Shown: positions 11,758 through 16,770, numbered from the stretch's first letter. The stretch is DNA of 64,000 bases from an uncultured Acidobacteriota bacterium (GCA_963828465.1 CAWHEU010000024.1:32001-96000); one strand, 5' to 3'. Numbers and translations: made by a program. Notes: generated from the letters alone by a model not told the origin.

Positions 11758-14076
<2,319 letters not shown>

Positions 14077-14201
14077 GTTCAAGGGAAAGATCCTCCTAGG
14101 GGGTTGCGGGCCGAGACTGTAGTGGAGGCCAATTCCTGTCGACAATCAGCACAACGGTGGGGTCTACCGTTGTATTACCGCTCACGAGGAAGGAATCGCA
14201 C

Positions 14202-14834
14202 GTGCTCGAAGGTTTGGTCGAATGGGTGACCTCGGTGGTCGAATCCCTCGGCTACGGGGGTGTCGCCTTCCTCGTGGCCCTGGAGAACCTGTTCCCGCCG
14301 ATCCCTTCCGAAGTGGTGCTGCCATTGGCCGGATTCGTGGCGGCGAATGGTGAGGCGTCGCTGGCCGGGATGGTTGTGGCCGCAACGATCGGGTCGATGA
14401 TCGGCGCTTTTCTCCTTTATGGCATCTCAGCCGCAATCGGCCCGGTTCGGCTCCGAGCGCTCGTCGTTCGCTACGGCCGTTGGTTCCGGCTCGACGAGGC
14501 CGATCTCGATCGCACCGAGGAGTGGTTCGACAGGCGCGCCAACGTCGCCGTCCTTATCTGCCGTTGTGTGCCGTTGATGCGGTCGCTGATCTCGATCCCG
14601 GCAGGGTTCCGGCGGATGTCGATCATCCCCTTCACGTTCTACACACTGATCGGCAGCCTGGTCTGGAACGTGGTGCTGATCGGGGCGGGGTACCTGCTCG
14701 GGGAGCGCTGGGATCAGGTCGAGGAGCCGTTGGAGCTGTTCAAGAACGCGGTCCTGGCCGCGATTGCCATCGCCGTCGCCTGGTACATCTGGCGCCGAGT
14801 CGTCCGGCCCCGGGTCCGAGGGGCCTCCGGCTGA
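14202..14834 (+). CDS. DedA family membrane protein
   Basis: LENLFPPIPSEVVLPLAG, RCVPLMRSLISIPAG. Confidence 0.92.
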   Translation: MLEGLVEWVTSVVESLGYGGVAFLVALENLFPPIPSEVVLPLAGFVAANGEASLAGMVVAATIGSMIGAFLLYGISAAIGPVRLRALVVRYGRWFRLDEADLDRTEEWFDRRANVAVLICRCVPLMRSLISIPAGFRRMSIIPFTFYTLIGSLVWNVVLIGAGYLLGERWDQVEEPLELFKNAVLAAIAIAVAWYIWRRVVRPRVRGASG

Positions 14835-14855
14835 ACCCGTAACCCTCCCGCCCGC

Positions 14856-14981
14856 CTCGTCTGCGCTGCACGTGGTCGGTCCGGGCCCAACGTGGTGCAG
14901 CCCGTTCGACAAGCTCCGCTCGGTCCCTCGTCCGCGCTGCATACCGCTGATCTGGGGCTGACGGATTGCAGCGCAGACGAG
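14856..14981. repeat. Two 55-bp palindromic units upstream of the DUF559 gene
   Basis: CTCGTCTGCGCTGCA-N25-TGCAGCCCGTTCGAC (14856-14910) and CTCGTCCGCGCTGCA-N25-TGCAGCGCAGACGAG (14927-14981). Confidence 0.85.
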
Positions 14982-15030
14982 TGAAAACGATGGGGTTGAA
15001 CAACGGTCGGCGACCCACCATGTTGAGGAG

Positions 15031-15948
15031 GTGGGGGATTCAGCCAGTCTCTACCGGATCGCCGCCAGGCAATGTGGGGCGTTCAACATCGTCCAGGCCC
15101 GCGAGACAGGATTTGATCGATCGGCGGTGCACCATCGAATCTCTACCGGCACCTGGACCCGATTGGACGACTCGGTGTATGCCCTGGTGTCGGCACCTCG
15201 AACCTGGAGGCAGACCCTGTGGGCGGCCGTATTGAGTCGGCCCCGAGCAATCGTCACTCATTGGAGTGCCTGTCGTCTCCTCGACATGAGCGACATCCCC
15301 AACCATGAGCCGATGATCCTGACTCCCAGGGCATCGAATACGAGATCCTCGGTGGCGCACATCTACGAATCGGATCAATTCGACCGAATCGCCGTGACCA
15401 CGGTTGACGGACTGCCTGTCACGACCATGCCCGAGACGATCCTGGTGCTTGCCCGAGACGTGAAAGGGCAGGTGCTGACACATGTTTTCGACGAGGCGGT
15501 GGTATCAGGCAAACTCGATCTGAAGGCGATGTCGGCCACCATCGACCGCGAGGCCGGTCGCCGAACACCCGGAACGCCGCTGCTGCGACGTCTGACGTCG
15601 TCGCGGTTGCCGGGCGCCCGTTCGACGTCTTCGTCGTATCTCGAGAGGCTGCTCGAGGTGGTTCTTCACGATCCACGGATGCCCGGATGGACCCGCGAAT
15701 TCGAGTTCTCTCTGGATGGTGTTCCATCGCGGGTGGACTTCTACATCCCATCGGCCCGGGTGGTCATCGAGGCGGATGGCCGGAACTGGCACACCAGATG
15801 GGAAGCATTCGAGTCGGACCGTCGACGAGACAATGCACTCGCCGCCCGAGGCATCCAGGTCCTCCGTTTCACCTACGACATGTTGAAGTCGGAACCGGGG
15901 AAATGCCTCGAGCAGGCGATAACGACCTGCCTCCTTCGCGCTGCATGA
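15031..15948 (+). CDS. AbiEi-like N-terminal domain + DUF559 (Vsr-like) endonuclease protein
   Basis: N-term IAARQCGAF..QA...G...R..GTWTRL..SVY. C-term RVDF...VVIEADGRNWH...DRRRDNALAARGIQVLRFT. Confidence 0.85.
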   Translation: MGDSASLYRIAARQCGAFNIVQARETGFDRSAVHHRISTGTWTRLDDSVYALVSAPRTWRQTLWAAVLSRPRAIVTHWSACRLLDMSDIPNHEPMILTPRASNTRSSVAHIYESDQFDRIAVTTVDGLPVTTMPETILVLARDVKGQVLTHVFDEAVVSGKLDLKAMSATIDREAGRRTPGTPLLRRLTSSRLPGARSTSSSYLERLLEVVLHDPRMPGWTREFEFSLDGVPSRVDFYIPSARVVIEADGRNWHTRWEAFESDRRRDNALAARGIQVLRFTYDMLKSEPGKCLEQAITTCLLRAA

Positions 15949-16057
15949 CGTTGGGCTGGCGACGACATGCTGCAGCCCAGACGAGGACCGTCGATGACCG
16001 CCCTCGTCTGTGCTGTGTTTGGTCGGGCTGCAGCTAACGGAGTGCAGCCGAGACGAG
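15931..16057. repeat. Two 55-bp palindromic units downstream of the DUF559 gene
   Basis: CTCCTTCGCGCTGCA-N25-TGCAGCCCAGACGAG (15931-15985) and CTCGTCTGTGCTGTG-N25-TGCAGCCGAGACGAG (16003-16057). Confidence 0.85.
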
Positions 16058-16067
16058 GACGGTCGAT

Positions 16068-16770
16068 TCAGCCCAGGAAGTCCCGCACCCAATCGTCGGC
16101 CGGACGGGCGAGGATGTCAGGGAGGGTGCCGGACTGGACGATGGAGCCCTCCCGCATCAGGGCGATGCGGTCGGACAGCGCCTCCGCCTCCTCACGATCA
16201 TGAGTCACCACCAGAGCGGTCACCCCACCATCGGACAGGATGCTCCGGGTGTCGACCATGAGACGCTCCCGAAGGGCACGGTCGAGGGCGCCCAGCGGCT
16301 CGTCGAGCATGATCATTCGGGGCTCGGGGGCGAGGGTCCGGGCCAGAGCCACCCTCTGCTTCTCGCCACCGGACAGATCGGTGATCGATCGATTGTCGAA
16401 GCCGTCGAGCCCGACCAAGTCCAGGGTGGCGGCTACCCGTCGACGCATGTCGTTCTCGGGCAGGTTTGCCATGCGGAGTCCGAAACCGACATTCCCGAAG
16501 ACATCGAGGTGCGGGAATAGGGCATAGCCCTGGAACATGAGGCCGAAGCCCCGGAGATGGGTCGGGACCGTGGTCACGTCCTGGCCGTCCCAGGTGATCG
16601 ACCCCGATTCGATCGGCACCAACCCCGCCACGGCCCGTAACAACGTCGATTTGCCCGATCCCGAGGGCCCGAGCACTGCCACTGTCTCGCCTGTCTCGAC
16701 CGTCATGGTGACATCCCTGAGGATGAGTTTCTCGCCCAGGCGGACGTCGATCGACTTTCACGCCCAGCAT
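16068..16770 (-). CDS. thiQ: Thiamine ABC transporter ATP-binding subunit (apparent +1 frameshift near 16757)
   Basis: GPSGSGKS, LSGGEKQR, MLDEP, VTHD. Removing one base restores MLGVKSIDVRLGEKLIL from ATG 16770. Confidence 0.8.

Follow-up and report, generated by a model that had tools for sequence, protein, structure and literature searches.

The 64,000-nt window analysed here (CAWHEU010000024.1:32001-96000 of GCA_963828465.1, an uncultured Acidobacteriota bacterium) contains, between a dedA-family gene and an ABC ATPase gene that converge on it, a solitary gene for a protein in which an AbiEi-like DNA-binding module precedes a Vsr/DUF559 nuclease domain. This gene is bracketed by four palindromic units of 55 nt, two on either side, each consisting of an arm, a 25-nt core and the inverted arm (type A, GCGCTGCA-N25-TGCAGCGC), and it is the relation between nuclease and palindrome that concerns us here. 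The locus was compared across 31 genomes of the same genus, in which G000 is the genome of the window itself and G012, G041 and G044 carry orthologous modules. The features of the locus, in window coordinates, are the following.

14839–16066: the entire inserted block, with units on both sides of leader and gene; it takes up the spacer that separates the two convergent genes at their stop codons
14856–14910: unit 1, type A; arm, 25-nt core and a degenerate right arm; folds no better than shuffles (z +0.1)
14927–14981: unit 2, type A; the best-kept copy, in which the 15-nt arms show a single mismatch; 49 nt separate its end from the start codon
14982–15030, plus strand: leader of 49 nt from unit 2 to the GTG start, conserved in the four orthologous modules (alignment of G000, G012, G044 and G041)
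15031–15948, plus strand: open reading frame (ORF) of 305 residues; AbiEi-like DNA-binding module at about residues 1–190, Vsr/DUF559 nuclease domain at about 200–305
15931–15985: unit 3, type A; the left arm forms the last five codons of the gene (LLRAA) and the stop codon TGA lies inside the core; fold z -0.9
16003–16057: unit 4, type A; together with its spacer it makes up a tandem copy of 72 nt, which G000 and G044 have and G012 and G041 lack

The first-pass annotation of the window had described four 55-nt units with 25-nt cores at periods of 71 nt (upstream pair) and 72 nt (downstream pair), the third of them encoding LLRAA in its left arm directly before the TGA, and all of this was confirmed on recalculation. 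The overlap of the gene end with unit 3 is retained in homologues down to 54% identity (L057–L061, where the unit spans 2108–2148 and the gene ends at 2115). Degenerate arms are found in unit 1 (right), unit 3 (left) and unit 4 (left). The orthologous module of G012 has an undamaged right arm in its unit 1, and as unit 4 is missing from G012 and G041 these two genomes are left with three units each. As an isolated DNA hairpin, unit 2 is predicted to fold with -18.4 kcal/mol (z -5.0 against shuffles) and unit 4 reaches a z of -2.3. Matches to the arm alone are not above chance in the window (10 found, 7.15 expected), and a scan for consensus promoters and terminators gave neither a sigma-70 consensus nor T-tract terminators. 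An Rfam search of 14600–16300 at a permissive threshold returned nothing on the units and three chance-level matches, all inside the gene.

The nuclease half of the protein is recognized by Pfam DUF559 (PF04480), which scores 37.2 bits against a gathering cut-off of 20.6 over residues 235–298 and matches 15 of 17 aligned homologues. At the N-terminus, Pfam AbiEi_4 stays below its cut-off in the 305-residue protein itself (17.1 vs 25) and matches 14 of the 17 homologues at E<=0.01, and the PADLOC AbiEi models match residues 5–170 with an E-value of 3.7e-26. A profile of the 17 homologues searched against the PDB gave the DUF559 structure 3hrl (4e-6), with AbiGI and AbiEi at the N-terminus. An AlphaFold2 model of the protein (pLDDT 88.4) was compared with known structures by Foldseek; its predicted N-terminal module resembles AbiEi 6y8q (E 1.2e-6 over 198 columns) and also Rv2827c (1zel), and its predicted C-terminal domain resembles I-Bth0305I (3r3p, TM 0.82), 3hrl (TM 0.80) and Vsr (1cw0 and 1vsr, probability 1.00). 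A PADLOC ‘homing endonuclease’ model also matches the protein (E 0.0028). Residues D236, E247, D249, H254, D263 and R266 are among those invariant across the 17 homologues, and the ratio of nonsynonymous to synonymous substitution rates (dN/dS) between orthologues is 0.10–0.13 with a dS similar to that of dedA, so that the protein is maintained, under purifying selection. This is the only intact homologue in its own genome. No transposase domain was found in the protein, no AbiEii toxin (PF08843, DUF1814) adjoins the gene or is matched anywhere in its 92%-complete genome, and the RAYT/Y1 (HUH) transposase family PF01797 is matched in none of the 31 genus genomes, whereas the control search matches 6 of 14 known genomes; the module had already been read as lacking both an AbiEii toxin and a transposase, and so it does.

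Related nuclease genes elsewhere carry palindromes of their own. Homologues at 38–43% identity (G003, G007, G014, G022 and G008) share another syntenic site, at which the gene is flanked by GTGTGCA-N25-TGCACAC units in doublets of period 60 (type B), and homologues of ∼30% identity at a third site are flanked by GAACCTGAG-N30-CTCAGGTTC units (type C). At least nine such gene/repeat types are visible in the genus, each gene type being single-copy per genome and syntenic across species. The association was quantified by a flank test, in which the match between the upstream and downstream flanks of a locus is scored and counted when it exceeds 16.5, the 99th percentile of a null built from mismatched loci. 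Scanning a single genome for each species with a pattern gave 80 loci, mostly from Acidimicrobiia, of which 76 had enough flank, and 62 of the 76 pass across Acidimicrobiia. Within the genus 32 of 37 testable loci pass (three were skipped for short flanks), in a set whose own null is inflated because its loci share unit types. When both sets were pooled, made non-redundant and freed of broken genes, 85% of 101 loci pass as compared with 6 of 594 long ORFs drawn at random from G000 (1%). Matches across loci follow protein identity: they are found in 16 of 16 pairs at >=80% identity, in 51% of 82 pairs at 60–80%, in 3% of 602 pairs at 45–60%, and in <=0.6% at lower identity. The upstream/downstream match within a locus is not attributable to the shared descent of orthologous loci. 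Beyond Acidimicrobiia the loci are few; L131 (labelled Actinomycetes) passes the flank test, and L123 and L126 fail. Type-A units were absent from the flanks of the 16 distant homologues searched. L060, on the Acidimicrobiia chromosome OZ244163.1, shares 54% identity and lies among other neighbours; it has type-A-like units, two upstream and three downstream, and looks like a more recently active copy since its cores are nearly identical.

These figures bear directly on the view that palindromes and gene merely hitch-hike together, variable spacers gathering both with no functional link between them. Unrelated palindromes do occur in the dedA/ABC spacer of G003, G046 and G018, as this view would have it, but a flank match in 85% of loci against 1% of controls, together with a repeat type that matches the protein clade, makes coincidence extremely improbable.

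The frame TGCA-N25-TGCA recurs with wholly different cores, some of which are perfect hairpins. Over 100 units, selected by a filter that required some pairing, the inner stem positions 4–10 are paired in 55–75% as compared with 31–43% in shuffles, with all four pair types represented, and the potential to form a hairpin is kept by compensating changes. G–T and T–G pairs are equally rare, with no strand bias, in units that were not oriented. The first-pass annotation had raised an RNA- or DNA-hairpin-guided nuclease as one of its readings; transcripts or extruded strands of the units would then direct the enzyme to its targets through their variable segments. The fixed geometry with variable segments of 3–5 nt beside the conserved TGCA would suit such guides, and nothing further points to them: the units have no match in Rfam, the equal rarity of G–T and T–G (units not oriented) gives no strand-specific wobble as would be expected of RNA, and both the AbiEi and the Vsr relatives are duplex-DNA proteins. 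We hold this reading to be very improbable.

For types B and C, the number of units in a genome was set against the state of the gene. Where the type-B gene is intact (five genomes), type-B units number 53, 32, 28, 22 and 12; G046, whose gene is a pseudogene interrupted by two stops, has 12, as compared with 0–3 in the remaining 25 genomes and 0–1 in controls. The eight genomes with an intact type-C gene hold 10–36 type-C units, sixteen genomes hold 0–1 and the gene is found in none of them, and seven (G000 included) hold 4–21 with the gene broken, partial or undetected; the type-C counts and loci of G018, G042 and G043 rest on unpublished genomes. G000 itself has 15 type-C units by a looser count, and its type-C homologue (contig C25:189962-190858, at a site syntenic with L021–L025) is split over three frames with a type-C unit still just downstream. 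All 10 solo type-B doublets of G007 show the exact period of 60, and six of these ten sites correspond to short, unit-free spacers in G000. The 21-nt sequence between the two units varies from site to site (L147–L156) despite the exact period, and a constant period joined to a variable spacer sequence suggests that two adjacent units may be read together.

Type-A units are likewise dispersed. With <=2 mismatches allowed, the 3.07-Mb assembly of G000 has 10 occurrences of the pattern GCGCTGCA-N25-TGCAGCGC as compared with one for a control read backwards, and a search with a profile of the unit recovers exactly the same 10 units at E<=0.01. A looser search allowing spacers of 18–32 nt gave 18 matches, of which nine are real units, all with a spacer of exactly 25, and the other nine, with spacers that are shorter or longer, are away from the sites of the doublets. 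All 10 units stand in doublets of period 71–72; four flank the only intact homologue, and the other six form three gene-less doublets on contigs C18, C20 and C29 (periods 72, 71 and 71), all of them intergenic and none near a homologue. Doublets orthologous to those on C18 and C29 are present in G003 (as one unit), G023, G044, G017 and G041, and further type-A sites that are filled in relatives (G003:C8, G008:C49 and the shared G008:C104/G017:C249) correspond to spacers of 10–25 nt in G000. Solo units occur between convergent, tandem and divergent genes, often right after stop codons.

This distribution bears on a second explanation, in which the protein is a solitary AbiEi-nuclease acting in defence, in a toxin–antitoxin-like manner or as a regulator, the upstream palindromes serving as its operator, the downstream ones as terminator-like hairpins, and the dispersed copies as a regulon or as unrelated sequences. 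The AbiEi fold and the model match of 3.7e-26 over residues 5–170 are in agreement with such a role, as are the conserved leader and the upstream doublet ending 49 nt before the start codon, and AbiEi is described as repressing its promoter through two inverted repeats (PMC3985639). On the other hand, the unit recurs downstream of the gene in 85% of 101 loci, the consensus scan gave no T-tract terminators, the 92%-complete genome holds no AbiEii partner, the presence of units varies between species, and solo units between convergent, tandem and divergent genes alike are a misfit for a promoter regulon. We regard this second explanation as quite unlikely.

The place occupied by the module was examined in the relatives. 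The left neighbour of the block encodes a VTT/DedA-family protein, whose best NCBIfam match, UptA, is below cut-off, and the right neighbour an ABC ATPase; of the two names initially given to the flanks, dedA holds at the level of the DedA/VTT family, whereas thiQ is not confirmed (153 bits vs a cut-off of 245). Further out, upstream of dedA, an ORF of 795 residues (11758–14145, minus strand) encodes a membrane protein that by eye resembles a proton-pumping pyrophosphatase and is unrelated to the module. The dedA gene was found in 25 of the 31 genus genomes, and four of these loci hold the module (G000, G012, G041 and G044). The orthologous gene in G041 (L015/L034, G041:C27) is split over three frames (residues 1–80, 79–253 and 252–305), and is either a pseudogene or an error in the assembly of that metagenome-assembled genome (MAG). 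In eleven of the 25, dedA and the ABC gene converge on an interval of 8–176 nt that contains neither the nuclease gene nor a unit, five have ∼1.4 kb of other content there, and in the last five the ABC gene is not visible within the locus. Of the ∼1.4-kb stretches, the one that was read, in G004, has an unrelated ORF of 430 residues and no nuclease. Because 11 genomes of the same genus have dedA next to the ABC ATPase gene without the block, the 1.2-kb block is, by this comparison, an insertion. Contigs of four DNA runs place the module in several soil samples, and a 356-nt soil-metagenome contig from run X5 joins 14838 to 16067 through 54 other letters, which replace the 1228-nt block. As this contig is only ∼92% alike it is probably from a relative; block-bearing contigs are present in the same X5 sample. 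A second apparent joint in X5, from 16000 to 14961, was rejected as a rearrangement, being a variant of unit 4. No sequencing run contained half of the words searched for, and the three RNA runs contained 0.04–0.05 of them. The palindromes in the dedA/ABC spacer of G003 (L042), G046 (L039) and G018 (L047) (TTACCTGAGG... and TTCTGTG...CACAGAA) resemble unit types that flank other nuclease clades, and since other palindromes sit there in relatives, this spacer is a repeated landing place. The module is also found in differing neighbourhoods in L059–L061.

A third explanation is that of a homing-type selfish nuclease, for which the palindromes would be an older, independent family of repetitive extragenic palindromic (REP)-like sequences that the enzyme cuts, its gene being copied into or beside them with the repeats themselves not spread. 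The likeness of the nuclease domain to I-Bth0305I (TM 0.82 for the predicted structure) and the PADLOC homing model (E 0.0028) fit this account, and so do the type-A solo doublets in gene-less genomes, some of which are older than the arrival of the gene at this site, and the different neighbourhoods of the module in L059–L061. A homing gene is nonetheless difficult to reconcile with gene types that stay single-copy per genome despite 10–53 potential targets, with an intergenic gene whose flanking units are whole and not split by it, with an empty dedA/ABC site in 11 relatives that offers no type-A unit as a target, and with type-B and type-C unit numbers that track the state of the gene. We therefore regard homing as unlikely.

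Our favoured interpretation, which we consider rather probable though far from certain, is that nuclease and units form a cognate pair, a repeat-plus-nuclease partnership of REP/RAYT type with an unrelated enzyme, in which the units would be the recognition sites of the gene's own product. At the level of sequence, the comparison shows a gene that is repeat-flanked, single-copy and syntenic, repeats and proteins that diverge together, and repeats that are dispersed with a presence varying between species. The first-pass annotation had suggested a module like that of RAYT and REPINs (inverted REP pairs) driven by a different nuclease, and had proposed looking for solo copies, for homologues with palindromes of their own and for an empty site in relatives. 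All three were found and support its suggestion: three gene-less doublets here and more in relatives, own palindromes at 85% of 101 loci as against 6 of 594 controls, and an empty dedA/ABC site in 11 genomes.

A mechanism in keeping with the cognate pair may be outlined. The AbiEi-like module would bind the arms, a role assigned to it because AbiEi binds paired inverted repeats at its promoter (PMC3985639). Binding to duplex DNA at the upstream doublet may repress the gene's own promoter, as AbiEi does at its operator, and the Vsr-like domain would nick the unit itself or DNA close to it, possibly where pairing is poor beside the conserved TGCA in an extruded hairpin. Host replication or repair could then copy units locally into tandem doublets of fixed period and, rarely, to new intergenic sites, with the gene-bearing copy moving only occasionally. 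A broader and more tentative proposal, which we judge possible but less likely to be right than wrong, is that AbiEi–Vsr fusion nucleases are the engines of an unrecognized class of repeat element, each clade recognizing and nicking its own hairpin-forming palindrome and multiplying it, through host replication or repair, into doublets of fixed period so as to seed new intergenic copies without transposase chemistry, with at least nine co-diverging pairs in a single Acidimicrobiia genus.

A number of observations weigh against the cognate pair. Solo type-A doublets are not enriched where the gene is present: gene-bearing genomes have 0 (G012), 1 (G041), 1 (G044) and 3 (G000), and the gene-less G003, G008 and G017 have two type-A sites each. 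Since the C18 and C29 doublets are orthologous in the gene-less G003, G023 and G017, they predate the gene's arrival here or are independent of it. Core identity is 0.69 within doublets and 0.62 between loci, which argues weakly for doublets as recent local duplications, and that idea was not retained. The fall-off of cross-locus matches with protein identity reflects shared descent in part, as many of the loci are orthologues, and the absolute pairing values of the inner stems are inflated by the pairing that the unit filter required. As isolated DNA hairpins, units 2 and 4 alone out-fold shuffles, and units 1 and 3 fail to do so. The ends do not follow one architecture, the units on the two sides having direct orientation in type A but inverted orientation in types C, E and H, and no target-site duplication is visible at the filled and empty junctions compared. 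Moreover, a hydrolytic PD-(D/E)XK nuclease cannot by itself rejoin DNA, and we know of no mechanism that explains the spread. Finally, the genomes are all MAGs, a weakness of the comparison, to which the unpublished part of the type-C record may be added.

The locus thus displays the genomic logic of REP/RAYT with a hydrolytic Vsr-fold nuclease fused to a DNA binder of antitoxin type. If the link is functional, it would give a role to DUF559, a very large family of unknown function, and a non-toxin–antitoxin explanation for the solitary AbiEi-like genes of Actinomycetota; such genes are routinely labelled antitoxins in annotation. It would also pose the puzzle of how repeats come to be multiplied with an exact period when the nuclease itself cannot rejoin the DNA, and offer sequence-specific, co-evolving protein/DNA pairs for study, nine or more in this genus. 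Should the broader proposal prove true, these nucleases would have a major and so far undescribed part in shaping the intergenic DNA of Actinomycetota. Our literature searches found no description of an AbiEi-like/DUF559 nuclease paired with palindromic repeats. Among the matches listed for DUF559, none concerns repeats as judged by title and the beginning of the abstract; the combination of DUF559 with palindromic sequences gave only irrelevant matches, and that of DUF559 with AbiEi none. Nothing was found on REPIN/RAYT in Actinobacteria or on REP with a Vsr endonuclease, and nothing relevant was among the matches listed for AbiEi, endonuclease, inverted repeats and Actinobacteria.

Several known systems share parts of this arrangement. 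Insertion sequences (IS) of the IS200/IS605 type, and pairs of IS and miniature inverted-repeat transposable elements (MITEs), have a gene between ends that form hairpins and, at other sites, short derivatives that lack the gene. The present module is alike in its hairpin-ended gene and gene-less short copies; unlike them, it has no known transposase class and no target duplication, and the gene is single per type and syntenic. Vsr is a stand-alone mismatch repair enzyme and I-Bth0305I resides in a phage intron. The predicted C-terminal fold is that of Vsr, 3hrl and I-Bth0305I and residues of the nuclease domain are invariant here, whereas neither Vsr nor I-Bth0305I is described with a genome-dispersed cognate palindrome. 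Vsr, DUF559 and the I-Bth0305I-type intron endonuclease are placed in one PD-(D/E)XK clade (PMC3424549), in passages of that source that are silent on repeats. The AbiE type IV toxin–antitoxin system has the same N-terminal two-domain module, and the promoter of AbiEi contains paired inverted repeats to which the protein itself binds (PMC3985639, PMC7319586); ‘nuclease’ and ‘endonuclease’ do not occur in the former paper. Here, however, AbiEii is neither next door nor elsewhere in the genome, a nuclease domain is fused instead, and the repeats are also found downstream of the gene and dispersed in the genome.

The closest parallel is REP/RAYT, the textbook example in which an enzyme of their own, encoded by a single-copy gene, maintains and spreads small palindromic repeats; that enzyme is an HUH transposase. 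In both, there is more than one group of repeats, the repeats stand in doublets, the enzyme gene is single-copy with its own repeat on either side, further copies are scattered without a gene, and the repeat decays where the gene is broken. REP groups with RAYT genes are described as short extragenic palindromes, over-represented as doublets and with several groups per genome, by Bertels & Rainey 2011 (PMC3116915). The enzyme here is an AbiEi-like, Vsr-fold hydrolytic nuclease and not a Y1 (HUH) transposase (PF01797 in 0 of 31 genomes), and copy numbers are low (10–53). In contrast to the REPIN, whose inverted REPs fold into one large hairpin, the doublets are direct, head to tail, with an exact period (60 or 71–72), and each unit is a palindrome in itself. 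On this comparison, the module and its relatives look like an undescribed counterpart of the REP/RAYT partnerships, with related genes across Acidimicrobiia each accompanied by a matching repeat.

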